This document shows, piece by piece, positions 1-18,688 of a stretch of DNA of 32,000 nt. Origin of the DNA: Neobacillus sp. WH10 (lineage in GTDB: Bacteria; Bacillota; Bacilli; Bacillales; Cytobacillaceae); assembly GCF_030123405.1 (NCBI RefSeq), contig NZ_CP126110.1:4905125-4937124 (forward strand), written 5' to 3'. Both the position numbers and the translations under genes were made by a program. Each line of letters starts with the position of its first letter. Within the stretch, counting starts at the first letter, position 1. The notes under the pieces are model-generated. The model was not told the DNA's origin. It saw only the letters and a list, made by a program, of their open reading frames with translations, and did not search any database.

Positions 1-1103
1 CAAATTCGCGCTGCTTCACTATGCTCAAGGCTCACATGTCCACCGCGACAGGCATCCTCTCTTGGCGTTCCAATGAAAAAGCCCATATCTGCCAATTCAT
101 GATCAATTAAATTCATTAAATAGCGATTAATTATAAGCGATTTTTCGCGGATATTTTCAATGCCAGCCTCTGTAAAAATCTCTAATGAACCGATTAATGG
201 TGCAATGCTTAGGACATGAGGAGTTCCAATTTGGAACGCTCCAGCTGAATGAGCCGGTATTAATGTATGCTCCATATCAAATTGTTTCTCTTTATTTGAA
301 CTAAACCAGCCCGCAAGTCCAGGCATTTTTCCAAAATGTTTGCGATTTACAAATAAGCCGCCCACACCGCCAGGTCCGCCGTTTAAATGTTTATAATTGC
401 ACCAGAACGCAAAATCAACATCCCATTCACTGAAGGAATGCGGGATGGAACCAACGGAGTGACAGCCGTCAAATCCGATTAAAATACCTCGTTTATGTGC
501 TTCATCGGTTAATCGTTTCATGTCTAATATTTGACCGCTGCGATAAAGAACAGTCGGTAGAATAATTAAGGCAATATCATCGGTCATCGCTTCGATAATA
601 TCTTCCTCTTCTAAAAAGCGGCCATCACGGCTTTTCACACGGATGAGATGTGCATCCGGATCATAACCATGAATCCTTACTTGGCTTTGAAGCGCATAAA
701 TATCAGATGGAAATGTTAGTTCATCCGCTAAAATTTTTGTACGGGTTCCTTCTGGCTGATAAAACGTTGATACAAGCTGATGCAGATTGACGGTGGTAGA
801 ACCCGTTACAACGACTTCTTCAGCAGCAGCCCCTACTAACGGCGCAAGCTTTTCGCCCAGTTTCTCTGCCATATAGAACCATGGATGAGTGCCCATAGTC
901 CAGCCATCAATCCCATATTGTTTCCAATCATCTAAGGTTTCTAAGAGAGTCCTTTCCGCTCTTTTAGAAAGGAGTCCTAATGAGTTCCCATCCATATAAA
1001 TAGAACCAGGCTTTAAATAAAACTCTTCTCGAAAACGCGAAAGAGTATCTTCTTTATCTAATTGTTTTGCGAAATCTAATGTTGGTAAGAAATTCGATAC
1101 CAT
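1..1103 (-). CDS. kynU: kynureninase (PLP-dependent); 3' end runs off the window
   Basis: Absent from the ORF track because it is open to the window edge. Reverse translation from the ATG at 1103-1101 gives [50 protein letters not shown]...[13 protein letters not shown]...[14 protein letters not shown]...[10 protein letters not shown], which matches Bacillus KynU as I remember it. GGGAGG RBS upstream; an alternative ATG lies at 1106. Confidence 0.85.
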
Positions 1104-1275
1104 CATAATCCTCCCTATCCCCAACTGAAATCGTTTGCAAAAAAGCATAACAAACAATATGACATGATGTCAATATTATATTTCCAACAATTCCAATTAT
1201 TAAAATAACTCATTTCAGCAATAGCTTTTATTTTGATAACAATCCATATATGCTAGAGGTATTGGAGGAATAGGT

Positions 1276-1887
1276 ATGAAAAAAACAGAGGATAAACGAC
1301 ATTTACGCTCAATCATAACGCGGCAAAAATTATTAGAAGCTGCAAAGGAGGTTTTTCTTCAAGAAGGCTTCCAAAAAGCAACAATTTCGCAAATGATAAA
1401 AAAAGCGAACATTGGTTACGGAACTGCCTATGTCCATTTTGAAGGAAAGGAAGATCTCTTAATCATATTGATGGAGGATGTCATGGAGCGATTTTATGAA
1501 ATTGCCGAAATCTCCTTTCTGCCAAAATCAAAACAAGTAGCAGAGGAAATCATTCACAAGCAGGCGAATGCCTTTTTATTAATGGCAGAAGCTGAACGGG
1601 CTATGATGCAAGTCTTTGAACAGGCAATCGGTGTTTCTGCTTTAATTTCAGATAAATGGAAAGCGATTCGGGAGAAATTTATTCAGCGGATCTCAATGGA
1701 CATTGCTTATGCGCAACAAAATGGATTGGCGAGAGCAGAATTAAACCATGACCTTGTCGCACGAGGCTGGTTTTTTACAAATGAAATGTACCTATGGGAA
1801 ATTGTCCGAGACGAACATCATGCTTCTGTTGAAGAGATTGCAAAAACCATCACCACAGTCTATGTCACCGGGCTGTATATTATGTGA
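1276..1887 (+). CDS. TetR/AcrR family transcriptional regulator
   Basis: 203 aa. N-terminal HTH pattern (RQKLLEAAKEVFLQEGFQKATISQMIKKANIGYGTAYVHFEGKEDLL). GGAGGAA RBS 5 nt upstream. Divergent from kynU. Confidence 0.85.
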   Translation: MKKTEDKRHLRSIITRQKLLEAAKEVFLQEGFQKATISQMIKKANIGYGTAYVHFEGKEDLLIILMEDVMERFYEIAEISFLPKSKQVAEEIIHKQANAFLLMAEAERAMMQVFEQAIGVSALISDKWKAIREKFIQRISMDIAYAQQNGLARAELNHDLVARGWFFTNEMYLWEIVRDEHHASVEEIAKTITTVYVTGLYIM

Positions 1888-1925
1888 GAAAGCAAGGGGA
1901 AGTAAGAGAGCCATCCCCTTGCTTC
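1888..1925. repeat. REP-like hairpin, GAAGCAAGGGGA family (variant copy)
   Basis: aagcaagggga (1890-1900) pairs with tccccttgctt (1914-1924). The arms match the hairpin family also seen at 16487, 18647 and 24746. Confidence 0.5.
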
Positions 1926-2031
1926 GAAAAAATAAAGGTAAAATGCTAAAAGATAGTTTATACTTGTATAAATGGTGCATTTATCCAAAAATTCGCACTC
2001 TTTATCAATCTATTAGGAGGAACTGATTCTG

Positions 2032-2703
2032 ATGAAAATTCCTTGGCTTCCTGTGCTAATTTTGTTAACGGGCTTATTGTACATTTTCTTTATCCCTGAT
2101 AACCCGTACTCTGTTAAGATTTTCTTCAAGCTGATCCCAATGCTGTTAATTATTCGTTATGCATACTTGCAATTTTCCGCCAAAAAAACAATTACCCATT
2201 GGCTGATCCTCATTGGATTGTTTTTCTGTATGCTTGGCGATGGCCTGATTGGTTGGTTTGTTGTTGGTCTAAGTGCCTTTCTCATTGGCCATCTCTTTTA
2301 TCTGGCAGGTTTCTTGAGTAGATGGCACTTTTCAAAGGTCCGGCTGGTGATGATTTTACCAATTTCTACATATGCTTTTATGATTGGCAGGGAGATTATC
2401 GCTGCCTTACTTCGAGACGGTAACAATGTCCTGATTGTTCCGGTTTTGATCTATATGATCGCCATATCTTTAATGGCCTGGTCCGCTATCATGACGGGGA
2501 ACAAATGGGCTATAATCGGCAGCATTTTGTTTGTTTTGTCGGATTCGATATTATCCTGGAATATGTTTGTTTCCGATATCGCCTTTTCAGATCAGCTTAT
2601 CATGACAACCTATTACACCGCTCAATTTCTGATTGCACTCAGCCTTCGATCGTTTGCAATCGATAACAGCCAGACGATTGTTAAAACAAGTAGTCATTTA
2701 TAA
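2032..2703 (+). CDS. YhhN-family integral membrane protein (lysoplasmalogenase-like)
   Basis: 223 aa, multi-pass hydrophobic. Motifs LGDGLI...HLFY and LFVLSDSILSW are typical of the YhhN/TMEM86 family. AGGAGG upstream. Confidence 0.7.
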   Translation: MKIPWLPVLILLTGLLYIFFIPDNPYSVKIFFKLIPMLLIIRYAYLQFSAKKTITHWLILIGLFFCMLGDGLIGWFVVGLSAFLIGHLFYLAGFLSRWHFSKVRLVMILPISTYAFMIGREIIAALLRDGNNVLIVPVLIYMIAISLMAWSAIMTGNKWAIIGSILFVLSDSILSWNMFVSDIAFSDQLIMTTYYTAQFLIALSLRSFAIDNSQTIVKTSSHL

Positions 2704-2716
2704 AGGAGTGATTAAA

Positions 2717-3196
2717 ATGAAAACCGTGTATGACTTTCAGGTAAAAATGTCAAATGGCGAGAAGAAATCATTACATGAATATGAGGGCAGGCCGTTAATT
2801 ATTGTCAATACTGCCAGTAAATGCGGGTTTACCCCCCAATTTAAAGGACTGCAGAACTTATATGATACATACAAGGATCAAGGGTTGGAAATACTAGGTT
2901 TTCCATGTTCTCAGTTCAACAACCAGGAATTTGAACAAATTGAAAAGACAACGGAGTTTTGCCAGATTAACTACGGAGTAACCTTCCCCATCTTTGCAAA
3001 AATTGACGTAAATGGTCCGTTCTCCGATCCTTTATTCAAATATTTAAAGGAACAAAAGACAGGACTTTTATCCCCTCGAATCAAATGGAATTTCACAAAA
3101 TTTCTTGTGGACCGTAACGGCCAAGTGATAAAACGCTATGCACCAACAGCAGATCCAAGCAGCATGGAAGATGATTTAAAAAAATTATTGTCTTAA
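2717..3196 (+). CDS. glutathione peroxidase family protein
   Basis: MKTVYDF...LIIVNTASKCGFTPQFKGLQNLY...LGFPCSQFNNQE...IKWNFTKFLVDRNG are Gpx signature blocks. Start moved from the track's 2633 to the ATG at 2717, which follows AAAGGAG. Confidence 0.9.
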   Translation: MKTVYDFQVKMSNGEKKSLHEYEGRPLIIVNTASKCGFTPQFKGLQNLYDTYKDQGLEILGFPCSQFNNQEFEQIEKTTEFCQINYGVTFPIFAKIDVNGPFSDPLFKYLKEQKTGLLSPRIKWNFTKFLVDRNGQVIKRYAPTADPSSMEDDLKKLLS

Positions 3197-3351: not shown

Positions 3352-3669
3352 TCACCCTGTGGATGAAATAGTATGTTTTATATGTTCATACGTTTTTTCG
3401 AATTCGACTGCTAAATCAATGTCCAATGCTGTTACTCCTTTTGCAGCCCATGTGCTGAGCGAAACAATAACAGCCTTATATTGGATGCTGATAAATGGAT
3501 GATGTTGGTTTGCTTCAGCAATTTGGCCGATTGCTGAAACAAACTGGATACCTTGCAGGTAATCTTTAAAAATATATTTCCTTTCAATCCATTTATCGTC
3601 TTTTACCTTCCAGTTTTGAAGTTTTGCACACTCCAATTGTATTTCTAAAGGGGTTAATGCTGTTAACAT
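3352..3669 (-). CDS. phhB: pterin-4-alpha-carbinolamine dehydratase
   Basis: 105 aa with the characteristic core FVSAIGQIAEANQHHPFISIQYKAVIVSLSTW. Its ATG overlaps the phhA stop (ATGTTAA, 7-nt overlap), so translational coupling is likely. Confidence 0.85.
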   Translation of the reverse strand: MLTALTPLEIQLECAKLQNWKVKDDKWIERKYIFKDYLQGIQFVSAIGQIAEANQHHPFISIQYKAVIVSLSTWAAKGVTALDIDLAVEFEKTYEHIKHTISSTG

Positions 3670-5423
3670 TCTTGACCTTCCTTTTGAAGCGGAAGTAAAG
3701 CTAATCCATTATTGATTAGGCGTTGAAGCTCTTTTGTTTTGCTGAGGTTGAGCAATTCTTGATGCACTTGTTCTGTTTCCATCGTTTGCACACCATGTCC
3801 ACAGAACAACTCCAGAATTTCCATACGCAACAGCCATTCCTTTGGAAAAGAGCTTCTCAAATCTTGCAGAACTGTTTGGACAGTAACCATACTATTTTCA
3901 TCCAGTGACTCTTTTTCACGAACTTCTCTAATTGTTTGGTACAGATTTTCTAATTCTGTTAACCGTCTTGGTGCTATTGATTCTTTTTTAGGTATTTCTT
4001 CTACACCGAAGAAGGCTTCTGCATCTGCAGCTCCTGGAAAAGCAGAAGTAACGGCTGATCCTACCGCCATGTCGAATACTCCCCAAGTCTCCTCAAATAA
4101 CATTTGATCTCCTAATGTGACTATACAGTTTTCGAAGGAAATAAGATTTATTTTGTTCTTGTTTCGGATAATATTTGTAACAATTCCCGTTACTTGAATG
4201 CCGCTCTTGAATGTCAAAGTCGCTTTTCGTCCTTTTTCTATTCCTAAAGCCAGAAGTTGTTCCTTGTTACATTCTTCAAGAGAAATGTCCTCTTCTAATA
4301 AACCAATTGGCGTTCCAAAACCATCACAATGAATTGCTTTCGAATGTCCAGGAAGCTCCTTATCATTAATAGCCAAGGCTGTTGGTCCTGCTGTTTTCAC
4401 ATAAATGGCCTCGCCATCTGGATCTTTAAGCGTTTTTTCGATCGTTCCTGTAATTTGTATTCCCGAGTTCAATACAAATGTCGACGTACTGCCTGATTGG
4501 AGTGCCTTATCTAAGCTCTCAGTTCCACCTTTTCGAAAGGCCATTGATTGGGAAAACTCTTCGATAGCCTCTATCAATTGATCAAAGCTCTCGCAAACAA
4601 ATAATTGCGGCTGCATGGTCGTTACATCGTAGCTTGTCTGAATACAAGACTCTACCGAAAAAGGAAGTTTTACTACTTCTTTAGACAAGCAATGCTTGCT
4701 TTCTCCTACAGAAGATAACAGACCTGCACCATATATTTGAGGGTTTTCCAACGTACCTATTAGTCCGTACTCCACTGTCCACCAGAAAATTCGCGAGATT
4801 TGTTCTGCTTCTGACATACCTGTTACCGCTTTTTGCTTTTCGCTTAGTAACCGTTTTGCTTCTTCAATTTGTTGTGGAGTGGAATTGCGGGCCTCCATTA
4901 CGATTGAAAGATGTCTTACGGCTTCAAATACTTCATGTTCTGCTCTTGTTGCAAACGCCTTTACGCCAATTTCTCCAAATCGTTTTACATATGAAGCATA
5001 TTGAGAATCAAAAATGATCGGTGCATGTCCTGCGGCTTCGTGGATTATATCCGGTGCCGGTGTATATTCAATGTTTTCAACTTTTCGAATATCCACAGCA
5101 ATTGGCAAAATACCATGAGCTTGAAAATCAAAAAAAGCAACACCCGGAATTAAGCCATCTACAATTGCAGCTCCCCAGCCAATTTTTGCAAGACGTTCAT
5201 TCATATCTGATACATTTGGAATTGCCTCTATGTCAATCCCCGATGCCCGGAGACCTTCCACATACGCCGGATGAGCAGTATCCTTTAGGACATGATGATT
5301 TTGTCTCATAACATATCGCCATACCGCATGATCGATTGGTGTGTACTGTTCGTAATGCTGCTCTGAGACAAATTGTCTCAAATGAACTGGAATCTGTTTT
5401 ATAGGTTTCAATAATTGGTTCAT
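3663..5423 (-). CDS. phhA: phenylalanine 4-monooxygenase (biopterin-dependent aromatic amino acid hydroxylase), long form with a roughly 290-aa C-terminal extension
   Basis: N-terminal ~295 aa carry the iron-ligand motifs PDIIHEAAGHAPI and FWWTVEYGL. Adjacent and coupled to phhB. Confidence 0.8.
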   Translation of the reverse strand: MNQLLKPIKQIPVHLRQFVSEQHYEQYTPIDHAVWRYVMRQNHHVLKDTAHPAYVEGLRASGIDIEAIPNVSDMNERLAKIGWGAAIVDGLIPGVAFFDFQAHGILPIAVDIRKVENIEYTPAPDIIHEAAGHAPIIFDSQYASYVKRFGEIGVKAFATRAEHEVFEAVRHLSIVMEARNSTPQQIEEAKRLLSEKQKAVTGMSEAEQISRIFWWTVEYGLIGTLENPQIYGAGLLSSVGESKHCLSKEVVKLPFSVESCIQTSYDVTTMQPQLFVCESFDQLIEAIEEFSQSMAFRKGGTESLDKALQSGSTSTFVLNSGIQITGTIEKTLKDPDGEAIYVKTAGPTALAINDKELPGHSKAIHCDGFGTPIGLLEEDISLEECNKEQLLALGIEKGRKATLTFKSGIQVTGIVTNIIRNKNKINLISFENCIVTLGDQMLFEETWGVFDMAVGSAVTSAFPGAADAEAFFGVEEIPKKESIAPRRLTELENLYQTIREVREKESLDENSMVTVQTVLQDLRSSFPKEWLLRMEILELFCGHGVQTMETEQVHQELLNLSKTKELQRLINNGLALLPLQKEGQEC

Positions 5424-5604: not shown

Positions 5605-5882
5605 TAAAAAAAACCCTACTGGAAAACCAGTAGGGACGAATAGACTTCGTGGTACCACCCTAGTTGCGAGCTTTCGCTCACCACTTCATTCTAATAACGA
5701 CTTTGCTGCCGTCTTTCCCTTCATAAAGAACTCCTGCCTTTACTACGAAAAAGAAACTCCAGGTGTGTAATTCATGCTTACGTTTGTACTGATTCACACC
5801 AACCATCAGCTCTCTGTAGACAAAATGCTAAGCACTACTGTATTCCCTTCCACGCTTGTATCCTATGAAATTTTTAAAAACC
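5605..5882 (-). promoter_or_regulatory. T-box leader, unit A (proximal to phhA)
   Basis: Minus strand shows AGTA/GAA specifier-loop elements, the ACAGAGAGC AG-bulge, the GGTTGGTGCAA distal loop, the T-box AGGGTGGTACCACG, and the terminator ccctactgg-tttt-ccagtaggg followed by a U-run. Confidence 0.8.
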
Positions 5883-6161
5883 AAATAAAAAGGCCCTACT
5901 GGAAAACCAGTAGGGCCGAATAGACTTCGCGGTACCACCCTAGTTGTGAGCATACACTCACCACTTCATTCTAATAACGACTTTGCTGCCGTCTTTCCCT
6001 TCATAAAGAACTGCTGCCTTTACTACGAAAAAGAAACTCCGGGAGTGTAATTCATGCTTACGTTTGTACTAATTCGCACCAACCATCAGCTCTCTGTAGA
6101 CAAAATGCTAAGCACTACTGTATTCCCTTCCATGCTTGTATCCTATGAAATTTTTAAAAAC
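5883..6161 (-). promoter_or_regulatory. T-box leader, unit B
   Basis: Same architecture as unit A, with T-box AGGGTGGTACCGCG and terminator ggccctactgg/ccagtagggcc followed by a U-run. About 94% identical to unit A by eye. Confidence 0.85.
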
Positions 6162-6441
6162 AAATAAAAAGTCCCTACTGGAAAAACCAGTAGGGACGAA
6201 TAGACTTCGCGGTACCACCCTAGTTGCGAGCATACGCTCACCACTTCATTCTGATAACGGCTTTGTTGCCGTCTTCCCCTTCATAAAGGCTGCTGCCTTT
6301 ACTACGAAAAAGAAACTCCGGGAGTGTAATTCATGCTTACGTTTGTACTGATTTGCACCAACCATCAGCTCTCTGTAGACAAAATGCTAAGCACTACTAA
6401 ATTCCGTTCAACGCTCTATAATATATAACATTTTTTTAGTA
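6162..6441 (-). promoter_or_regulatory. T-box leader, unit C (first transcribed)
   Basis: Same architecture. T-box motif at 6208-6221. Terminator gtccctactgg/ccagtagggac; the flanking pair covaries with unit B (GT..AC versus GG..CC). Confidence 0.85.
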
Positions 6442-9123: not shown

Positions 9124-9378
9124 GCTTAAGAAACAACAAGCAGGGGTCAAACATTCTTATGATAGTATAAATGGTAAAGAAGGTGCTTTCCATGATAAAT
9201 ATCCGGTTTAAAATATATATTAGAGAACTTAGCTCCGCACAAATGTATACGATGAAGCATTGTACGGAGCTTAATCGGGAAGCATCAAGTTTCCTATATT
9301 CATCGGCTTATAGTTGCTAAAAAGTGTAGTGCTGCTATGCTTTTTTGCGTATGACTATTTGCCGAAGGATAATTGATT

Positions 9379-9419: not shown

Positions 9420-9489
9420 GGATATTTCAATGAGTTTTCTCGGAATTGAAATAATATTTGTTGTATTCTTTCTATGCAGCAAAACCACT

Positions 9490-9546
9490 AAAGCAAAGAG
9501 CTAGCGTCTTTTGTGACACTGTCTCTTTGCTTTTTTTATTTTTTAG
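9490..9546 (+). terminator. terminator/attenuator hairpin immediately upstream of the ABC-F RBS
   Basis: aaagcaaagag (9490-9500) pairs with ctctttgcttt (9523-9533), followed by tttttttatttttt. It ends 17 nt before the ATG at 9563. Confidence 0.65.
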
Positions 9547-9562
9547 GAAAAGAGGAAAAAAG

Positions 9563-11098
9563 ATGAGTTTACTTGAAGTCAGAAATTTAACACACAGATT
9601 TATAGACAAACCCCTATATGATAAAGCAAGTTTCGATTTATACAAAGGTGAACATATGGGAATCGTAGGACAAAATGGCGCTGGAAAAAGTACACTTATA
9701 AAAATATTGATGGGAGAAATCATTCCCGATAACGGAATGATTAAATGGAAAAGGGATATTAGGATTGGACATCTCGATCAATATGCCGAAATCAATGGAA
9801 CCAAAACAATTATTGACTATTTGAATACAGCATTTGCCAATTTATTTGAACTCGAAAAAAAACTGAATGATCTCTATCAAGAAATGGTGATTACAGGTAA
9901 TTACGATCTGATGGAGCAAGCGGCAAAATACCAGGAGAAGCTTGAAACGAGTGATTTTTATTTAATAGAAAGTCACATCGATAAAGTGGTTTATGGCTTA
10001 GGGATTAATGCAATTGGCATCGAGTGCCCCATTCAGGAGTTAAGCGGCGGCCAAAGAGCGAAAGTTATACTAGCAAAGCTATTGCTTGAAAAGCCCCATG
10101 TACTATTGTTAGATGAACCAACGAATTTTCTAGATAAGGAACATGTAGACTGGCTTGCAAACTATTTAACCGTATTCGATGGCGCTTATATCGTTGTATC
10201 CCATGATTTTGATTTTTTAGAGAAAATATCTTCTTGTATATGTGATATCGAGCTTGGCACCATCAAAAAGTATACGGGGAAATACTCGGATTTTCTGCGT
10301 CAAAAAGAGCATTTGCGAGAAGATTACACTCGACAATACGTCGCTCAACAAAAAAAGATAGAAAAAACGGAAGAATTTATTCGAAAGAATATTGCTGGAG
10401 TTAATAGCAAGATGGCTCAAGGTCGTCGGAAGCAGCTTGAAAGAATGGAACGAATGGCTCCACCAGTTTTCACTCATAAACCTGCCTTTAGTTTTAAGGA
10501 AATCTCACTTTCCGCACAGATGGCTCTACGTGTAAATGACCTTGAGGTTGGTTATGGTAAACCCCTTTTGCCTAAATTGAATTTTACTGTTTCAGGCGGG
10601 CAAAAACTTGTGATTACAGGTTTTAATGGAATTGGAAAGTCCACATTACTAAAAACACTCGTTCAACGTATATCAATTGTCGCAGGTAGTTTCCAGTTTG
10701 CGGAATCCGTAAAGATTGGTTATTTCGAACAAAATTTAACATGGGAAGATAAGGCAAAAACACCTCTCAAAATTATCTCAGATTTTTATCCTAAATTGGG
10801 CGTTAAGGAGATTCGTAGTCGTTTGGCTCAATGTGGGCTGAAGAATGCTCATACTTCACAAGCAATTGGGACATTAAGTGGCGGAGAACAGTCAAAGGTA
10901 AAATTATGCCTGCTCCTTCTTTCATCTTGCAATTTTCTAGTCTTGGATGAACCAACCAATCATTTAGATGCAGAAACAAAAGAAGCTTTACAAAAAGCAT
11001 TAATTCAGTTTAAAGGCAGTGTATTACTTGTTTCTCATGAAGAAAAGTTTTATCAAACGTGGGCGGATCGCTATCTAAATATAGAGGATTGCATTTAA
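9563..11098 (+). CDS. ABC-F family ATPase (two nucleotide-binding domains, no membrane domain)
   Basis: Two Walker A motifs (GQNGAGKST, GFNGIGKST), two signatures (LSGGQ, LSGGE) and a basic interdomain linker (QQKKIEKTEEFIRKN...RRKQLERMERM). Start moved to the ATG at 9563 after AGGAAAAGAGG, because the track's 9458 start would read through a terminator. Confidence 0.85.
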   Translation: MSLLEVRNLTHRFIDKPLYDKASFDLYKGEHMGIVGQNGAGKSTLIKILMGEIIPDNGMIKWKRDIRIGHLDQYAEINGTKTIIDYLNTAFANLFELEKKLNDLYQEMVITGNYDLMEQAAKYQEKLETSDFYLIESHIDKVVYGLGINAIGIECPIQELSGGQRAKVILAKLLLEKPHVLLLDEPTNFLDKEHVDWLANYLTVFDGAYIVVSHDFDFLEKISSCICDIELGTIKKYTGKYSDFLRQKEHLREDYTRQYVAQQKKIEKTEEFIRKNIAGVNSKMAQGRRKQLERMERMAPPVFTHKPAFSFKEISLSAQMALRVNDLEVGYGKPLLPKLNFTVSGGQKLVITGFNGIGKSTLLKTLVQRISIVAGSFQFAESVKIGYFEQNLTWEDKAKTPLKIISDFYPKLGVKEIRSRLAQCGLKNAHTSQAIGTLSGGEQSKVKLCLLLLSSCNFLVLDEPTNHLDAETKEALQKALIQFKGSVLLVSHEEKFYQTWADRYLNIEDCI

Positions 11099-11659: not shown

Positions 11660-12142
11660 TTATTTAGGTCTTGGCGGTGGAATTAGCTTGATTTCCTTAT
11701 TGGCATAAATAGCAGCAATTTCGTTAGATTGTAACAATCTTTTAATTTCCTTCCCTGGAAGCTTAATCGATACCCCGTTAAATGCCATTTTATAAGTATG
11801 CTTTATCGAATAGGGAATTTGGTGTTGGCCTAAATATCGTTCTACATCCTTCTTAAAGCGTGAATGACTTTCTTCTACGTCCTGTTTTGCTTGTTCCAAT
11901 GTTAATGGTACTCCACTCTTTTCTGCAATGGCGACTGCAACCTTTGCTGGATACGTTTTAAAGTGAATGATGATTTCAACCATCTTTTCACTAATCATAT
12001 CGACTTCTGGGTCAATGTGTATAGCTGGAGTCATTACTTCTTTCCCCCTGTTTTCTCCCCGTTCCCTTATGTATTCATGATTGTCATATCCAGCTAGACA
12101 TAAAAGACAAGTGAGCAATAAAATTGGATACCATCTTACCAT
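11660..12142 (-). CDS. secreted protein made of a signal peptide plus a peptidase-inhibitor I9 (subtilase propeptide-like) domain only
   Basis: 160 aa. Hydrophobic N-terminus (ILLLTCLLCLAG), then VEIIIHFKTYPAKVA...HTYKMAFNGVSIKLPGKEIKRLLQSNEIAAIYANKEI. It stops where a catalytic S8 domain would normally begin. Confidence 0.55.
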   Translation of the reverse strand: MVRWYPILLLTCLLCLAGYDNHEYIRERGENRGKEVMTPAIHIDPEVDMISEKMVEIIIHFKTYPAKVAVAIAEKSGVPLTLEQAKQDVEESHSRFKKDVERYLGQHQIPYSIKHTYKMAFNGVSIKLPGKEIKRLLQSNEIAAIYANKEIKLIPPPRPK

Positions 12143-12348
12143 TACTATATCATCCTTCCTTCGATAGAATACTTCAAGGATTCCCTTTTTGACCTATCCT
12201 TATCAAATTCTCTAGAAAGGAAAATATATATAGTCGGCTAAATAATAATTTCTTTATCCACTATCCGCTATTGAGGTATTTTTGTTGGTCTTTTTTACTG
12301 ATGTTTATAATTGGGGTAGCCTATTCATTCAACATATCAAGTAAATAT

Positions 12349-12385
12349 GAAAATCCGCTGCCAAAGAACTAGGCAGCGGATTTAT
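12349..12385 (-). terminator. intrinsic terminator ending the ECF operon
   Basis: aatccgctgcc (12352-12362) pairs with ggcagcggatt (12372-12382). U-run on the minus strand. Confidence 0.7.
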
Positions 12386-12410
12386 ACTTGTCTATGTAAT
12401 TAGGAAAACA

Positions 12411-13241
12411 TCAAAGAAAAGGATTATAGAACCGATCGCCATCATGAAATGTGACATAAAGCGAGACTAATAGTATGAGAGCGAAAAGGATGATAGTGAA
12501 TACATCTATTTTTTGAAATGGGCGTGCCCGGTACCAAGAACGCTTTTTGTTTTTTCCAAACCCTCGGAGCTCCATTGCATTGCTAATGATTTCAATTTTA
12601 TCGAGACTTGATAAGATGAGCGGGATGATGATCGATGCAGCATTCTTTATCCGCTTCGGCAGCTTTTCTTTGCGCGACATATCAATCCCACGGGCTTGCT
12701 GGGAAAGCGAGATATTACGAAAATCTCGTTGAATGTCGGGAATATAGCGTAATGCAAGTGCAACAGCATAAGAAATTCGGTAGCTGACACCGATTCGGTT
12801 TAATGATGCGGCAAATTCACTGGGATTTGTCGTCACAATAAATAGAATCGCCGCCGGAATGACGGTGAAATATTTAAGTGTAACATTCATTTGATAAAAC
12901 AGCTGCTCTAGCGTGATCGAATAGCGCCCGCCGATTTCAAACAGCACATGGCTTGTCCCATAGATTTTTACCCCTTCTTGCGGCGAAAATACATAGATTG
13001 CAAGATTATTAATCATCAAAAACAATAAGATAAATAGGAGGACAAAGGCCACTTCCTTTAGTTTCACCTTGGAAACGATAAAGACGCCGATACTAAATAG
13101 GAAGAGGAAGACTAAAACTCGCGTATCATAGGTAAGCATCGCAATCGATGACCAGATGATGAAGCAAATCAGCTTGGTTACACCTGTCAGCTGATGGACC
13201 GGCGATTGCCGCTCTATGTATGAAAGCATTTCTACTGCCAT
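12411..13241 (-). CDS. ECF transporter transmembrane (T) component
   Basis: 276 aa, multi-pass. EcfT-type coupling motifs (LSQQARGIDM, AMELRGFG). Its start overlaps the ATPase stop by 10 nt. Confidence 0.8.
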   Translation of the reverse strand: MAVEMLSYIERQSPVHQLTGVTKLICFIIWSSIAMLTYDTRVLVFLFLFSIGVFIVSKVKLKEVAFVLLFILLFLMINNLAIYVFSPQEGVKIYGTSHVLFEIGGRYSITLEQLFYQMNVTLKYFTVIPAAILFIVTTNPSEFAASLNRIGVSYRISYAVALALRYIPDIQRDFRNISLSQQARGIDMSRKEKLPKRIKNAASIIIPLILSSLDKIEIISNAMELRGFGKNKKRSWYRARPFQKIDVFTIILFALILLVSLYVTFHDGDRFYNPFL

Positions 13242-14944
13242 TTCTGTCTCACCTCACGATCATAGGCGATAAACCTCTCGACAAACTGCTTTGGATCGCT
13301 AATTCCCGCCCGGTTTGCCAATTCAAATAAGGATGTTTCCTTTAAATTTGCCTCTTCAATAATTGTAGAATCCGCCAGTACATTGACAGCTGAGTCATCG
13401 GCTATTTTTCTTCCGCCTGCAATCACAATCGCCCGCGGCGTATATTCAAGCATGAGATGCATATCATGGGTAATCATGATGATTGTAACACCTTGGCTGT
13501 TGAGTTCCACCAAAAATTCCATGATCTCGGTATAATGGCGGAAATCCTGCCCTGCGGTAGGCTCGTCAAGTATGATTATCTCTGGCTCCAATACTAAGAT
13601 GGAGGCGATGGTTACCCGCTTTTTCTGGCCAAAGCTTAACGCCGAAATCGGCCAGTTACGGAATGGATACAATCCGCAAATTTTCAATGTCTTCATAACG
13701 CGCTCTTTTATCTCGGCTTCCGGTACACCAAGGATGACCAGACCAAGCGCCACTTCATCATAGATCATCTGCTTCGAAATCATCTGATTCGGGTTTTGCA
13801 TTACCATGCCGATCCTTGATGCCCTCTCTTTAATCGTATCTTCGGTAATATCCTGCCCGCGATAATAAATTCTTCCCGAGCTAGGATTTTCAAAGCCGCA
13901 AATTAATTTGGACAGTGTCGACTTTCCAGCACCATTTTTTCCAACAATACTAACCATTTCACCTTTTTCAATCGAAAAAGAAACACCGTGAATCGTTCTT
14001 TTTCCTGGTGTATAGCCAAAATTAATTTCCTTTAATTCCAAAACAGATTCTGTTTTCTCTCTAGGCTGCGGGCTATCCACTTTTGTAAACCAGTCCACTA
14101 ACTGACCTTTGCAGCTTTCAACTTGAAAGGAATCGAGATGAGCGGGCTTCATTTCTGGCGTAATATCACAGGCGGCATATTTCGCTGCTTTCACATATAA
14201 GGGCTCGCGGATGGAACATTGCTCCAAGACGGGGGAAGCTAAAAGTTCATCCGGAGTCATGTCACCGATAATCCTGCCATCATCAACGACAATGATGCGG
14301 TCAACAGGGCAATGCAATACATCCTCTAAGCGGTGCTCGATAATCACGACCGTTTTGTTTGTTTCTTGTTGGATCCTATCAATGAGTTCAATTGCATATT
14401 TTCCTGTTGCCGGATCAAGATTGGCCAGTGGTTCATCAAATAATAGAATCTCCACATCATCGACCATTACCCCAGCAAGAGATACCCTTTGCTTTTGTCC
14501 TCCGGAAAGATGGTGCAGCGAGGAGTCCAAATAATCCTCCATTTCCACCATTTTCGATACCTCGGCCACCTTATCAAACATTTGTGTTTGTGGTGTACAA
14601 TCATTTTCGAGCGCAAAAGCGATATCCTCAGCAACCGTAAGCCCAATAAATTGCCCATCAGGATCTTGGAGAACCGTTCCGACTTTTTTCGATAAGGAAA
14701 AAATGTCTAAATCCTTAGCGTCCTCGCCGCAGATTTTCAAACTTCCTGATACTTCCCCTTTGTAAGAAAAGGGAACAAGGCCATTGAGACAATGGCCAAG
14801 TGTGCTTTTTCCAGATCCAGATGGACCAACAATGAGAATCTTTTCCCCTTCATAGATCGTTAAGTTTATCTCATGTAATGTTGGTGCCGTCTGACTGCGA
14901 TATTGAAAGCTATAGTTTTCAAATTGTATAACCGGTTTTTTCAT
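13232..14944 (-). CDS. ECF transporter fused double ATPase (A-A' components)
   Basis: 570 aa with two sets of Walker A (GPSGSGKST, GKNGAGKST), signature-like motifs (LSGGQKQR, LSFGQKKR) and Walker B. The architecture resembles YkoD-type dedicated ECF ATPases. Confidence 0.85.
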   Translation of the reverse strand: MKKPVIQFENYSFQYRSQTAPTLHEINLTIYEGEKILIVGPSGSGKSTLGHCLNGLVPFSYKGEVSGSLKICGEDAKDLDIFSLSKKVGTVLQDPDGQFIGLTVAEDIAFALENDCTPQTQMFDKVAEVSKMVEMEDYLDSSLHHLSGGQKQRVSLAGVMVDDVEILLFDEPLANLDPATGKYAIELIDRIQQETNKTVVIIEHRLEDVLHCPVDRIIVVDDGRIIGDMTPDELLASPVLEQCSIREPLYVKAAKYAACDITPEMKPAHLDSFQVESCKGQLVDWFTKVDSPQPREKTESVLELKEINFGYTPGKRTIHGVSFSIEKGEMVSIVGKNGAGKSTLSKLICGFENPSSGRIYYRGQDITEDTIKERASRIGMVMQNPNQMISKQMIYDEVALGLVILGVPEAEIKERVMKTLKICGLYPFRNWPISALSFGQKKRVTIASILVLEPEIIILDEPTAGQDFRHYTEIMEFLVELNSQGVTIIMITHDMHLMLEYTPRAIVIAGGRKIADDSAVNVLADSTIIEEANLKETSLFELANRAGISDPKQFVERFIAYDREVRQKWQ

Positions 14945-15002
14945 AAAATTTCTCCTAGTGAATCAATGCTCTTCTGTTTGCAAAACAGTCTGCATCTTAT
15001 AA

Positions 15003-15560
15003 TTAAACATCCTTAGTTAGACTGCCGCTTTGACTGCGGCTTTTTGCATAGATACTAAGCAACAGCGTACCAAGGACAGCAACAGTTACCATGTTTAACC
15101 CGCCGGCAACCACGCCTTGTAAATAAACCTTATTTGCTGGTTCGGCATAAATAAGAACATCGAGGGTCGGAGCAATCGCGAACCAGCCGATCGCTTGGAC
15201 AACGATTTGAACCACGTTAAACAGAATGATTTTTTTCGTATTAAAAATGCCTGATTCAATATTGATTTTCTTCGCTGCAAGGCCAATTAAGAAGCCGACG
15301 ATTCCAGAAACGATGACCCAGCTCCACCACGGAGTTCCGTAGAAGATGGCATCCTTTAAGGCGTGGCCGATTAACCCAATCAACCCACCGGCAACCGGTC
15401 CGAAAACAATTGCCATTAACGCTAAAAAGCCGTACGATGTGTCAAAATTCGTATTTGGTACTCCTGTTGGAATAACGGCGAATCTGCCTAAAATCACGAA
15501 TACGGCTGCGCCAATCCCAATTGCCACGATCGTTTTGATTGATAACTGTTTTCCTTTCAT
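15003..15560 (-). CDS. ECF transporter substrate-specific (S) component, UPF0397-like
   Basis: [43 protein letters not shown]...[17 protein letters not shown]...[20 protein letters not shown] resembles the UPF0397 S-component family as I remember it. The track's start at 15710 is rejected because it overlaps the upstream gene; the ATG at 15560 (or 15590) is preferred. Confidence 0.7.
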
Positions 15561-15594
15561 TTCCTCAACCCCCAAAAAGATCTTTTTCATAAAG

Positions 15595-16452
15595 TTAATT
15601 GTAAACAATTTTCGGCAATTTGCGTATAGAAATTTTCCATGATGCCCCTGTTTCAATATGATATGCCTTTGCAAAAGAACCCTGGTTAATCGCAACGCCA
15701 ATTTTATCAAGCGAATTCACATATAGCAATGGCTCACCTAAATGAATATCAGCAAATGTTCGGCCATACGTCATAATGTTTTTATAGACTTGGCGGGTAT
15801 CATTTTCTATCGTCACTTCAAAGGAATCACCATATTCCACTGATAAATTTTTGAAGAGTACACGGTCAATATTTGTCCATAAATTACCGAACCGAATATC
15901 AAGTATGTCAATATTGCCAGTGAGCACATGATTGGTAATACTCGGCTCCTCCTTGGGAAGTTCGATGATGGAATCAACCGGCACTTCTGGACCCACTTGT
16001 TCAAACGTAATTAAATTGGAAGCGAGTCTTGCCCCGGTATATGCATAGACATCACGACCATGGAACGTATAGGATTCACCAGAACACGGCAAGCGATTGA
16101 CGTCCTCATCAATGATTCTTACTTCTTTAATGCCAATACAATTTTTAATATGGGTGAGCGTACCATTGTCCGGAGTAATAATATACTGATCCAAAGCCGT
16201 TTTCGCGACAACACTTCTCCGCTCAGAACCGACACCTGGGTCAACAACCGAAACAAACACCGTTCCTTCGGGCCAATAGGAAACCGTCTGATATAATCGG
16301 TAGGAGCCTTCCCAAATATGATACTGGGGAATGTCATGGGTTAAATCAAATACACGGATGGCTGGATTCACGGAAATAGCCACACCATACATAGCGCTTA
16401 CAGCACCGTCACTTGTACCAAAATCAGTTTGTAACACGAGATGATTATTCAT
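15595..16452 (-). CDS. DUF62 / SAM hydroxide adenosyltransferase family protein (SAM hydrolase, related to chlorinase/fluorinase)
   Basis: [20 protein letters not shown]...[20 protein letters not shown]...[12 protein letters not shown] are hallmark blocks of this family. Strong AAGGAGG RBS. Confidence 0.8.
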
Positions 16453-16486
16453 TATATTTTCCTCCTTAGTTTTTTATTCTAGGTAT

Positions 16487-16551
16487 GAAGCAGGGGGACG
16501 GTTCTCCTGCTTCATTATGTACCAGAAGCAATTGAACCGTCTCCTCGCTTC
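16487..16551. repeat. two inverted copies of the GAAGCAGGGGGACGGTTCTCCTGCTTC hairpin element
   Basis: Copy at 16487-16513 and a degenerate, oppositely oriented copy at 16525-16551. Both lie between the T-box terminator and the DUF62 start codon. Confidence 0.65.
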
Positions 16552-16572
16552 ATTTCTCTTATTTACGGAATT

Positions 16573-16903
16573 AAAAAAACCACGCCCCTATCTATTTCAA
16601 GAAATAGATAAGGACGTGGTTGATCTCCACGTGGTACCACCTTAATTTACTGTTTGCTCACACAAAACAGCCTCTGCAAGTACGAGAGCGTAATGCTGCT
16701 CTTTATACTGTGGTATTGATAACGAGTACCAAATCTCGTCGGAACCTACTCCAATCTAGTTAGATTGTTTCAGCACGAAGCTCTGAGGCCATTGTTCGGA
16801 TTAGTATTTTTGCTTCTTTTCAGCTGCCGAAGCTCTCTGTATAAAATAACGTAATCGTACTTTCCCTCTTCAACGCTATAAATCATATATTGTTTGAAAA
16901 TTT
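16573..16903 (-). promoter_or_regulatory. T-box leader, probable methionine (AUG) specificity
   Basis: Minus strand shows a K-turn (GTTGAAGAGG), AGTA, ACAGAGAGC, and a specifier-loop 3' side GAACAAUGG abutting the lower stem CCUC/GAGG. The AUG lies at 16792-16790. T-box AAGGTGGTACCACGTGG is followed by the terminator ccacgtcc...ggggcgtgg and U7. Confidence 0.8.
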
Positions 16904-16909
16904 ATTAAA

Positions 16910-16938
16910 ATTATAGTCCGTATGAATGAAATAGTCAA
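16910..16938 (-). promoter_or_regulatory. sigma-A-type promoter of the Met T-box operon
   Basis: Minus strand reads TTGACT (16938-16933), a 17-nt spacer, then TATAAT (16915-16910). Confidence 0.7.
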
Positions 16939-17132
16939 GCATGTAAATACACAATTTTCTACAAATTTAGTTGTTATGAATATTGTCCTAATAAGTTCCA
17001 GCTATTTGCTCTGCATTAAAGGTTCAATCTACATTTATTTATCACCTTGGAATTGGTTTTGGTCTTGTCCATTATCGACAAACTCGAATAATACGAACAT
17101 CTTTTCCTTACCACTAGCCTTTATTCCATTTC

Positions 17133-18224
17133 CTAAGTAGTTGTTAATTTAGCATAGATGATAAAAAACAGGGCTAGTTCTCCCATTATGATAATGTTTG
17201 GAACTACTACTATCAAATTAATAATAAAAAAGGTTGCTAAAATCCCTAAAAATAACGCTAAATGATAATATTTTAGACGGTCTTGTTCAAACCTGTATTG
17301 ATGAAAAACAATAGTTGTTGTTATGAAATAGAGTAATACAGAACCGAATACAAAATATAAGTTAAATGAATAACGAACCTCATGGAGATAGAGCAGCTTG
17401 ATGGAAGCAGCAATCATGCTCAAAGACATTAAAATAAACAGATGACCGTAAATAATAGTTTGGCCGGCTGTTTCGATCGACTTATTTACTTTCTTATCTA
17501 CATTTTCGAAATACTGCCACCACATCGAAATAATAAGGATAAATGAAATGATTGAAAATGAGATCGAATTCCAATCCCCTTTTTGTGGCTGAAGTACAGA
17601 AAGGGTGCTGACGACCGATTCTCCAAAAAGGATTAGTGTAAATGTAGCAAAACGTTCTAATAAATGAACCGTATTGGTCGAAGCTTTCACCAAATACTTG
17701 CGTCCGAAAAAAGGCACAATAATATCGACAATAATTCCTATATATAATATGCTGTATCGAATCCATGAATCAAATAAGATAGAGAAAAATGAGATGATGA
17801 TTCCAATCCAAAAACGTGTTCCTAAGTATTGAGCTACCTTTTTCGTATCCCCTTCTTCTACACTCCGAACAACTAGATATTGGATCGCTGTTAGTGATCT
17901 TAATCCAATATAGCCAATAAGAAAAGGGAGATAATATTGATCAAAATCAACCGATAAGCTTGATGTCATAATAAGAACAAACACCATTTGAAGGATCATA
18001 AAGATCCGTTGATGCATAAAATCTTGTCCAAACCGGTTAATAAACATCGTTTGGCCTACCCAAGACCACCAGATTGGAATAAATATTAAAGCAAACTTCA
18101 ATAAATATTCTGGATGAATTTCTCCTTGTTTAACATGAAGTAAAACATGAGTTGCAGTCGCAACAGCTGCAGCAAATAGCAAATCATAGAAGAGTTCTAA
18201 CCATGTAACTTTCTTTTCTTCCAA
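17133..18224 (-). CDS. low temperature requirement protein A (LtrA) family membrane protein
   Basis: 363 aa. The N-terminal VTWLELFYDLLFAAAV signature plus about 10 predicted TM segments. TTG start after GGAGC. Confidence 0.75.
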   Translation of the reverse strand: MEEKKVTWLELFYDLLFAAAVATATHVLLHVKQGEIHPEYLLKFALIFIPIWWSWVGQTMFINRFGQDFMHQRIFMILQMVFVLIMTSSLSVDFDQYYLPFLIGYIGLRSLTAIQYLVVRSVEEGDTKKVAQYLGTRFWIGIIISFFSILFDSWIRYSILYIGIIVDIIVPFFGRKYLVKASTNTVHLLERFATFTLILFGESVVSTLSVLQPQKGDWNSISFSIISFILIISMWWQYFENVDKKVNKSIETAGQTIIYGHLFILMSLSMIAASIKLLYLHEVRYSFNLYFVFGSVLLYFITTTIVFHQYRFEQDRLKYYHLALFLGILATFFIINLIVVVPNIIIMGELALFFIIYAKLTTT

Positions 18225-18646: not shown

Positions 18647-18673
18647 GAAGCAAGGGGACGGTTCTCCTGCTTC
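18647..18673. repeat. REP-like hairpin GAAGCAAGGGGACGGTTCTCCTGCTTC
   Basis: Lies between convergent ORFs. GAAGCA/TGCTTC and GGGGA/TCTCC pair around a CGGT loop. Confidence 0.65.
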
Positions 18674-18688
18674 ATAAGTTTGAAGCGT

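Follow-up and report, generated by a model that had tools for sequence, protein, structure and literature searches.

A DUF62 enzyme and a complete, dedicated ECF importer form a single transcription unit behind a methionine-specific T-box in Neobacillus sp. WH10, and the most likely function of this cassette is the scavenging of methionine from adenosyl-sulfonium compounds (probability roughly 0.55). The four-gene cassette recurs in many Bacillota and on Enterococcus plasmids. Its two halves are individually known, while the enzyme-importer cassette itself was not described in the literature searched; since they share a cassette, both unexplained parts become testable as one methionine-scavenging route. 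A preliminary description of the window (the whole 32,000-nt stretch of contig NZ_CP126110.1 that was analysed) had proposed that the operon imports S-adenosylmethionine (SAM) or a related compound during methionine starvation and releases methionine from it. This interpretation is partly supported: the methionine-specific leader, the families of the encoded proteins, the residues of the catalytic triad and the recurrence of the cassette are observed, whereas SAM hydrolysis by DUF62 in this organism, SAM binding by the S component and the direction of benefit are inferred.

The transcription unit and its leader RNA

16910..16938, minus strand: sigma-70-type promoter, TTGACT-17 nt-TATAAT, 11/12 matches
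16607..16882, minus strand: T-box leader, Rfam RF00230, 111.0 bits, E=5.4e-24
16792-16790, minus strand: specifier AUG in Stem I, from cmscan alignment and sequence reading
16789, minus strand: G after the specifier AUG, then lower-stem strand 16788-16785
16639-16636, minus strand: T-box bulge UGGU, from sequence reading
16571..16621, minus strand: leader terminator, 20-bp stem (16621..16578) and U-run
15595-16452, minus strand: DUF62 / SAM hydroxide adenosyltransferase (SAM hydrolase), 285 aa; PF01887 7e-50, PF20257 6e-23
15003-15560, minus strand: ECF S component, 185 aa; PF07155 1e-51, PRK13661 (UPF0397) 257 bits
13232-14944, minus strand: fused A-A' ECF ATPase, 570 aa; ABC_tran x2, PF12558
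12411-13241, minus strand: ECF T (coupling) component, 276 aa; PF02361 3e-32
12343..12383 (approximate), minus strand: operon-end intrinsic terminator, from direct sequence reading

The promoter is the one given in the preliminary description and the top-scoring site within positions 11900-17300; the Rfam T-box match begins about 28 nt downstream. That match is full-length (model positions 1-219) and lies above the gathering score of 93, in agreement with the earlier reading of a complete T-box leader. In the cmscan alignment, GAGG pairs with CCUC around the specifier loop, whose 3' side is GAACAAUGG, so the specifier codon is AUG; the purine said to follow it is G. The T-box sequence is AAGGUGGUACCACG and its bulge reads UGGU, as described; no tRNA gene with which to compare the A73 discriminator lies within the window. 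The 20 pairs of the leader terminator are followed by TTTTTTTAA, the 5' arm overlaps the antiterminator, and the leader's minimum-free-energy fold contains the terminator hairpin (z = -3.4). Homologous leaders point the same way: among the 80 DUF62 loci closest to the window, a sample of the at least 583 species hits that is biased because closest relatives alone were taken, a T-box is present at 70, and 69 of these 70 keep the AUG+G specifier. The leader is thus a methionine-specific T-box.

An AAGGAGG ribosome-binding site lies upstream of the DUF62 gene, and the four genes, whose identities all proved correct in HMM searches, are tightly packed: the two intergenic gaps measure 34 and 58 nt, and ATPase and T genes show the expected 10-nt overlap (13232-13241). 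The operon is a single transcription unit that starts with the promoter at 16938 and ends with the terminator near 12343.

The operon-end terminator reads AAATCCGCTGCC, a loop of 9 nt, GGCAGCGGATTT and then TCATATTT. It is absent from the preliminary description's list of elements and was also passed over by an automated terminator scan, because its loop is longer than 8 nt.

The DUF62 enzyme and the ECF importer

Characterised DUF62 family members convert SAM to adenosine and methionine; they are slow and favour (R,S)-SAM. The preliminary description called their physiological role unclear, which holds insofar as a 2025 study disputes (R,S)-SAM hydrolysis as the physiological activity, and falls short in that such a role has been proposed since 2020, with archaeal knockouts in support. 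The window DUF62 has both Pfam domains and the Asp-Arg-His triad of PH0463, Salinispora StDUF62 and Sulfolobus SaciSAMH, and is 35-40% identical to the solved DUF62 proteins; a Neobacillus sp. WH10 protein matches it at 100% identity. Its residues D71/R78/H131 correspond to the PH0463 triad D68/R75/H127 and are invariant in the clade alignment (A4); with this catalytic triad intact, the enzyme looks active. Unlike the (R)-SAM hydrolases, it scores below the cutoffs of both NCBIfam (R)-SAM hydrolase equivalogs (139 vs 350; 126 vs 470). The clade is tight within Bacillota, with Bacilli and Clostridia sharing 63-77% identity in primary cassette copies, and has DGAVSAMY and DLTHDIPQ as its signature motifs. 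Its members occur behind a Met T-box and/or in an importer operon, a context that we did not find described for the characterised DUF62 enzymes.

The S component, which probably starts at the ATG at 15560 rather than at an upstream TTG, far exceeds the PRK13661 cutoff of 99. Its AlphaFold model (pLDDT 95.6, six helices) was assigned to the ECF S-component fold by Foldseek, at equal distance from FolT, BioY, RibU, ThiT and PanT; sequence and predicted-fold comparisons of this protein singled out no ligand. In the ATPase, two ABC domains are linked by DUF3744, TIGR04520 (417 bits) and TIGR04521 (367 bits) both exceed their cutoffs, and the translation contains two Walker A motifs (GPSGSGKST and GKNGAGKST) and two signature motifs (LSGGQ and LSFGQ). 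The T component bears the motifs QQARG and MELRGF; its CbiQ equivalog score falls below the cutoff (80 vs 112), which excludes it as an ortholog of cobalt CbiQ. The three proteins make up a complete, dedicated group-I ECF importer. ECF systems typically import micronutrients, with high affinity and low capacity.

Recurrence of the cassette

The neighbourhood survey proposed earlier confirmed that DUF62 co-occurs with this S component under Met T-box control: the order DUF62-S-AA'-T is kept at 62 of the 80 closest DUF62 loci. An Rfam check of eight sampled loci found the T-box in all of them, and also at loci L068 and L076, in Listeria and on one E. faecium plasmid. The eight clostridial loci among the 80 all keep this gene order behind differing promoters, and an Rfam scan of these cassettes found no riboswitch and no methionine-linked RNA control, so the linkage of DUF62 to the ECF module outlasts regulatory change. 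When the search was started from the S component instead, DUF62 lay directly upstream in four of six clostridial homologs. Across the loci scanned with Rfam, no SAM, FMN or cobalamin riboswitch was found upstream; where a leader RNA was present, it was always a Met T-box.

The cassette is also mobile. It is present on two Enterococcus faecium plasmids: on NZ_CP064407.1 it has IS1216 copies on either side, and on NZ_CP034950.1 the fetched stretch shows one side alone, which carries IS1216 together with an IS256-like element. The NZ_CP064407.1 copy adjoins a second Met T-box, which drives genes for an amino-acid permease and for mmuM, whose annotation is homocysteine S-methyltransferase. This pair is the established S-methylmethionine-to-methionine route, and so a further sulfonium-scavenging module. 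With the closest loci, the clostridial homologs and both plasmids considered, the linkage of DUF62 to the ECF module far exceeds chance.

Proposed function, alternatives and related systems

Because the linkage is so strong, enzyme and importer probably act in one pathway with methionine as its useful product. Uncharged tRNA-Met would turn the operon on, since it binds the AUG specifier through its anticodon and stabilises the antiterminator with its free 3' end. The importer may then take up scarce external SAM, the putative ligand of the S component, and with it the (R,S) epimer, which is biologically inactive and accumulates in aged SAM, and cytoplasmic DUF62 would displace methionine from C5', presumably giving L-methionine and adenosine in Neobacillus as well. 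In addition, DUF62 could use SAM or (R,S)-SAM already present in the cell, which would account for stand-alone DUF62 genes under a Met T-box in many relatives. A T-box suits a SAM-consuming enzyme better than a SAM riboswitch does, because the enzyme is then made at methionine shortage rather than at SAM shortage. The direction of benefit is likewise presumptive, and the low capacity of micronutrient-type ECF systems fits poorly with bulk supply of an amino acid. Other points against scavenging are the slowness and (R,S)-SAM preference of the characterised DUF62 enzymes, the sub-cutoff scores of the window protein for both (R)-SAM hydrolase equivalogs, and the clostridial cassettes, in which no methionine-linked RNA control was detected.

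Separate occurrence of the two halves under Met control also counts against scavenging and makes a looser coupling possible, though we consider it the less probable explanation. The ECF module would import methionine or a non-adenosyl precursor (S-methylmethionine, homocysteine or a methionine derivative) while DUF62 independently frees methionine from internal SAM or (R,S)-SAM during starvation, the two sharing a promoter through the methionine-starvation regulon alone. Stand-alone DUF62 genes are preceded by a Met T-box at 16 of the 18 importer-less Bacillaceae loci (no importer within 8 kb) and in Listeria, and the L. plantarum ECF module stands alone behind one. Furthermore, Butyrivibrio and Eubacteriaceae have ECF modules without DUF62, and S components resemble the window protein to the same degree (51-57% identity) whether or not DUF62 lies beside them. 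Rodionov is also said to have predicted, in 2009, 'methionine precursors' as the substrate of such modules. However, Clostridia keep the complete cassette although no methionine-specific regulator is detectable there, and the cassette moves as a single unit on plasmids, which makes shared regulation alone an insufficient explanation.

Alternatively, SAM may be imported as a cofactor when methionine limits SAM synthesis, with DUF62 clearing the (R,S) epimer that would come in along with environmental SAM and recycling it to methionine and adenosine. This seems unlikely: it is consistent with the typical import of cofactors by ECF systems, with the (R,S)-specificity of the Salinispora, Sulfolobus and Haloferax enzymes and the accumulation of (R,S)-SAM in knockouts, and, as much as scavenging is, with the conservation of the cassette, but the window clade falls outside both (R)-SAM hydrolase equivalogs, and the SAM-riboswitch control that might be expected of a SAM importer was found upstream of none of the scanned cassettes. 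It is very improbable that the database names are correct and that a riboflavin or cobalt/cobalamin importer lies beside an unrelated DUF62. PF07155 and PRK13661 are named 'ECF-type riboflavin transporter', yet the match to solved RibU reaches just E=0.11 and the fold is no nearer to it than to FolT or BioY. The T component falls within the Pfam CbiQ family, and cobalt or cobalamin uptake supporting MetH was suggested for lp_0148-0150 (Wels 2008); that Pfam family takes in ECF T components generally, however, the CbiQ equivalog is below cutoff, and CbiM and CbiN genes are absent from the window. With Met T-boxes rather than FMN or cobalamin riboswitches in the scanned loci, the "riboflavin" and "cobalt" annotations are not supported.

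For methionine scavenging by enzyme and importer together, parallels in design are QueK-QrtT-QueL, in which an end-product-sensing leader RNA controls an ECF S component and a salvage hydrolase that frees the needed moiety from a larger imported precursor, and YkoEDC-TenA, which follows the same operon logic. Both differ from the window cassette in S-component family and ligand, in having established substrates where the window ligand is putative, and in their control by metabolite riboswitches, whereas a T-box senses tRNA. Known SAM importers (the DMT-type carriers of Rickettsia and Chlamydia, and yeast Sam3) come from unrelated families and work as secondary carriers rather than as ABC or ECF systems; none is known to be paired with a SAM hydrolase. 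The methionine-regulated ECF transporter with this type of S component was reportedly named MtsABC/MtsTUV (TCDB 3.A.1.29) by Rodionov in 2004 and 2009, with a 'methionine precursor' as substrate.

The preliminary description had alluded to methionine-regulated ECF modules, and these do concern this S-component family: in L. plantarum, lp_0150 opens a three-gene Met T-box operon, lp_0148-lp_0150, for which cobalt or cobalamin was a guess (Wels 2008). Like the Neobacillus operon, this one has a UPF0397 / PF07155-type S component of roughly 185 aa, its own fused A-A' ATPase and T component, and a Met-specific T-box upstream; the DUF62 partner is missing, whereas the Neobacillus operon and the related cassettes start with one. 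Conversely, Listeria monocytogenes lmo2587 encodes a DUF62 protein 60% identical to that of the window, directly downstream of a T-box (Rfam, 107 bits) with an AUG specifier, and is monocistronic with no adjoining ECF module. It was identified by its 843-nt length and its neighbours mdrT and brtA, which we take to be lmo2588 and lmo2589. The gene was listed in 2008 as 'Met related cytosolic hypothetical'.

Architecture and control of the operon

An enzyme of the SAM-hydrolase family and a complete dedicated importer are encoded in one minus-strand operon, under the control of an attenuator that senses Met-tRNA. The preliminary description had reported a promoter, a complete T-box leader with an AUG-plus-purine specifier abutting the lower stem, a UGGU bulge and four closely packed genes, and all of these parts were found at the positions listed.

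Features of the operon (window positions, strand in brackets)
16938..16910 (-): promoter TTGACT-17-TATAAT, the best consensus match of the region
16607-16882 (-): T-box leader (RF00230), 111.0 bits versus a gathering score of 93, E=5.4e-24, covering model positions 1-219 (full length)
16621..16578 (-): leader terminator with a 20-bp stem and a U-run; its 5' arm is common to the antiterminator 3' strand, so the two structures are mutually exclusive
15595-16452 (-): DUF62 gene (PF01887 and PF20257)
15003-15560 (-): ECF S component (PF07155; NCBIfam PRK13661)
13232-14944 (-): fused A-A' ATPase (TIGR04520 and TIGR04521, both above cutoff)
12411-13241 (-): T component (PF02361)
about 12383..12343 (-): operon-end terminator, missed by the terminator scan

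In the cmscan alignment, GAGG pairs with CCUC to form the lower helix of Stem I of the leader. CCUC directly follows the 3' strand of the specifier loop, GAACAAUGG, giving the codon AUG (16792-16790) plus G, and the T-box sequence AAGGUGGUACCACG carries the UGGU bulge. No tRNA genes were found in the window. Spacers of 34 and 58 nt separate the first three genes; between the ATPase and T genes there is the 10-nt overlap first described. Profile matches to the DUF62/SAM_HAT, S-component, ECF ATPase and EcfT families agree with the four original assignments. Outside the operon lie an LtrA gene upstream and a gene for a peptidase-inhibitor I9 protein downstream, the latter seen again in only one related locus. 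A hairpin between the leader terminator and the DUF62 start was considered as a second regulator and rejected, being a dispersed 29-nt palindromic repeat. Copies of this element, GAAGCAGGGGGACGGTTCTCCTGCTTCAT, are present at 16487-16515, 16525-16553 and 18647-18675 of the window; one lies 2.1 kb off in another intergenic region at 97% identity, and a degenerate copy adjoins the first. The element looks like a small dispersed hairpin repeat and not like a part of the leader.

The DUF62 protein (100% identical to a Neobacillus sp. WH10 protein) contains both SAM_HAT domains at full length, N-terminal PF01887 at 169 bits and C-terminal PF20257 at 81 bits. Its residues D71, R78 and H131 align with D68, R75 and H127 of PH0463, a structurally solved DUF62 enzyme, and are invariant in 10 clade members from Bacilli and Clostridia. 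DUF62 enzymes use this Asp-Arg-His triad to hydrolyze SAM to adenosine and methionine, and it separates the hydrolases from fluorinases and chlorinases. The window protein missed the cutoffs of the NCBIfam equivalogs for (R)-SAM hydrolases (NF058624/NF053629, 138.6 versus 350 and 125.9 versus 470), which places it in the same superfamily, but stereospecificity is not transferable to it. Many DUF62 homologs, including PDB 7ccg, are named "DNA-directed RNA polymerase subunit delta" in databases, a name for which we found no support.

The importer is a complete dedicated (group-I) ECF set: alongside the S gene, the operon encodes a 570-aa protein in which TIGR04520 and TIGR04521 both score above cutoff, and a PF02361 T component. 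The S component matches PF07155 at 176 bits and belongs to a small family (607 clusters at E<=1e-3 among 1.84 billion representative proteins). Its AlphaFold model (pLDDT 95.6) has the six-helix ECF fold, and all 25 top Foldseek matches in the PDB were ECF S components. The model is equidistant from FolT, BioY, RibU, ThiT and PanT (TM about 0.6, 14-23% identity); structure prediction and Foldseek returned only the generic ECF S fold, with no solved ortholog from which a ligand could be read.

Distribution of the cassette

Enzyme and importer remain linked even where the lineage, the regulator or the replicon differs. When the DUF62 alignment was used to query the genome collection, at least 583 species matched, and the best 80 loci, comprising Bacillaceae and eight Clostridia, were kept as 16-kb stretches; these are the nearest relatives and a non-random sample. 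Among these closest loci, 62 of 80 have the S, A-A' and T genes immediately after DUF62, in the order seen in the window; in the remaining 18, DUF62 has no ECF gene within 8 kb. T-boxes precede DUF62 in 70 of the 80: in every one of the 54 Bacilli loci with ECF genes, in 16 of the 18 without an importer, and in none of the eight from Clostridia. In the leader alignment GAA(C/A)AAUGG(C/U)CUC is nearly unchanged, with AUG plus G in 69 of 70 leaders, and the Rfam T-box model exceeded its gathering score in all eight loci sampled, three of them importer-less. The pairing of DUF62 with the S component, noticed originally in the window alone, recurs in other Bacillota, with a T-box upstream of every Bacilli copy in this set of loci.

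The bulge is less uniform than the specifier. Its variable base is U in most Met leaders, A (UGGA) in Sporosarcina and Paucisalibacillus and C (UGGC) in one Cytobacillus (loci L046, L052, L057, L058 and L028); UGGA and UGGC bulges would not pair with an A73 discriminator. Downstream of some importer-less T-box DUF62 genes, those of the Virgibacillus/Oceanobacillus loci L054, L063 and L065, stands an ORF that, judged by eye from translations, is M20-type amidohydrolase-like; the ORF after another importer-less DUF62 (L049) resembles, by the same kind of inspection, an NhaC-family membrane protein.

In the clostridial cassettes a strong promoter, TTGACA-17-TATACT, is followed by a short leader. 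Rfam gave no match at these loci, either at its gathering threshold or with the limit relaxed to E<=1; neither a divergent T-box nor any SAM riboswitch was found. In Oscillospiraceae (L071-L073, L078-L080) the promoter block TTGACA-N17-TATACT is conserved within AAAAGGCGTATACTNAAATGTAA, about 100 nt upstream of DUF62 and with no known RNA element; this block could be an operator for a protein regulator. Clostridial DUF62 proteins (primary cassette copies only) share 63-70% identity with the window protein, which is unusually high for the phylogenetic distance between Bacilli and Clostridia. One Lachnospiraceae MAG (L069, 4270-9236) has the rearranged order DUF62, A-A', T, second DUF62, S component; the second DUF62 is a paralog of 47% identity with an intact triad. 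Viewed from the importer, DUF62 is immediately upstream of the S-component homolog in four of the six clostridial contigs inspected, and Butyrivibrio and Eubacteriaceae (two of six) have S-AA'-T without DUF62. No riboswitch was found at any of these six loci.

Additional cases came from a plasmid collection that includes chromosomes mislabelled as plasmids. Two Enterococcus faecium plasmids carry the four-gene cassette beside insertion sequences. On the conjugative plasmid NZ_CP064407.1 (L092), IS1216 copies lie on both sides and an AUG-specifier T-box precedes the cassette; a few kilobases away, a second Met T-box (AUG) drives an amino-acid permease gene and mmuM, annotated as homocysteine S-methyltransferase. 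The permease-mmuM pair is a route from S-methylmethionine to methionine, another sulfonium-scavenging module. Together, the two Met-T-box units (420-3019 and 5651-10002 of L092, with IS1216 copies around them) look like a mobile methionine-scavenging island. The second plasmid, NZ_CP034950.1 (L095), has IS1216 and an IS256-like element on one side and carries the cassette alone.

Listeria monocytogenes has, beside mdrT and brtA, a DUF62 gene of 843 nt whose product is 60% identical to the window protein; upstream of it stands a T-box (107 bits, AUG specifier). From its length and the numbering of its neighbors we take the gene to be lmo2587. Wels et al. (2008) listed lmo2587 as a "hypothetical protein" gene, transcribed alone behind a Met T-box. 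Of 5426 complete E. coli genomes, 2422 have a DUF62 gene in the interval from yigE to uvrD, 54% identical to the Neobacillus protein (L094, L093). The copy in the 118UI chromosome (L094, 4039-4941) contains an internal stop and carries a pseudogene annotation, and its surroundings lack ECF genes.

Cargo of the importer and role of DUF62

The operon unites two long-standing questions, the substrate of the methionine-regulated ECF importers and the purpose of bacterial DUF62. Rodionov et al. reportedly named the system of the lp_0148-0150 type MtsABC in 2004 and MtsTUV in 2009, predicting a "methionine precursor" as substrate. We know of no substrate assigned to a methionine-regulated ECF importer since that prediction, and none was found in the literature searched. 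In Lactobacillus plantarum, lp_0150-lp_0148 form a three-gene operon under a Met T-box, of which the first gene, lp_0150, encodes a 186-aa integral membrane protein guessed to import cobalt or cobalamin (Wels 2008). The window S component agrees with lp_0150 in Met T-box, size, architecture and UPF0397/PRK13661 family, a comparison made with the description in Wels 2008 only.

Our data suggest, with a probability of roughly 55%, that the operon scavenges methionine through SAM import and DUF62 hydrolysis, as the preliminary description proposed. That proposal is partly supported: the Met T-box is confirmed and enzyme and importer are linked in other genomes, and the SAM cargo stays a prediction. 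Shortage of charged tRNA-Met would induce the operon whatever the SAM level, the importer would carry the DUF62 substrate (SAM or its (R,S) epimer), and methionine would be the useful product of import and hydrolysis. T-box rather than SAM-riboswitch control suits a SAM-consuming enzyme, since induction would track uncharged tRNA-Met and not the SAM level. The four-gene order in Bacilli and Clostridia, the AUG specifier and carriage on E. faecium plasmids turn the "methionine precursor" label into a specific hypothesis: SAM in, methionine and adenosine out. In the main alternative, the importer would bring in another methionine source while DUF62 taps internal SAM. This looser coupling is consistent with the occurrence of the DUF62 half and the ECF half each alone under Met control, and we consider it possible if rather unlikely; even so, DUF62 would be firmly established as a member of the regulon that responds to methionine starvation in Bacillaceae, in Listeria and on enterococcal plasmids.

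In another variant the imported SAM would serve as a cofactor and DUF62 would remove the inactive epimer. The DUF62 enzymes of Salinispora, Sulfolobus and Haloferax act specifically on (R,S)-SAM, the inactive epimer, which builds up in archaeal DUF62 knockouts; a 2025 study questioned (R,S)-SAM repair as the physiological function of the Salinispora enzyme. We regard this cofactor variant as improbable. Homologs of the S component are uniformly named "ECF-type riboflavin transporter substrate-binding protein" in databases, for which no support was found here. A RibU riboflavin importer was rejected, as RibU (3p5n) gave E=0.11 and ranked 17th by fold and Rfam found the T-box only, with no FMN element; a CbiMNQO cobalt importer was rejected on the lack of CbiM/CbiN ORFs and of a cobalamin riboswitch and a TIGR02454 score of 80 versus a cutoff of 112. 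The riboflavin and cobalt names are unsupported on these grounds, and it is very improbable that they are correct.

If the SAM-importer reading is true, it would answer both questions, the substrate of the Mts-type ECF systems and the physiological role of bacterial DUF62. ECF transporters would gain a new substrate class, SAM uptake would be known in bacteria other than obligate intracellular ones, and the widespread names "riboflavin transporter substrate-binding protein", "cobalt transporter" and, for DUF62, "RNA polymerase subunit delta" would have to be amended. More tentatively, and at below even odds, we propose that SAM or its (R,S) epimer is taken up by the PF07155/UPF0397 "Mts" S component, which would make it the first ECF-type importer of this kind, with the Bacillota DUF62 clade as its dedicated methionine-releasing hydrolase. 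The two would form a mobile cassette, borne on plasmids next to insertion sequences, and the cassette would allow Bacillota of soil and gut to obtain methionine and adenosine from adenosyl-sulfonium compounds in their environment. Each part is of a known family; the apparent novelty is the conserved mobile combination and the specific substrate hypothesis. Our literature search, which was incomplete, found no paper linking DUF62 with an ECF transporter or describing the cassette, and prior mention in SEED, RegPrecise or Kornfuehrer 2020 is possible.

Other regulatory elements in the window

Three tandem full-length T-boxes of 133-141 bits each occupy 5629-6420 (-), ahead of an ORF at 3663-5423 (-); its 586-aa product contains the domain of biopterin-dependent aromatic amino acid hydroxylases. 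The specifier region, GAAUUACAC, points to UAC (Tyr); a gene resembling phenylalanine hydroxylase seems to be controlled here by three Tyr T-boxes in series. On the opposite strand, an ABC-F type ATPase ORF at 9458-11098 (+), with two ABC_tran domains and one ABC_tran_Xtn domain, is immediately preceded by the Rfam "uup" RNA motif (9223-9270 (+), 65.6 bits).
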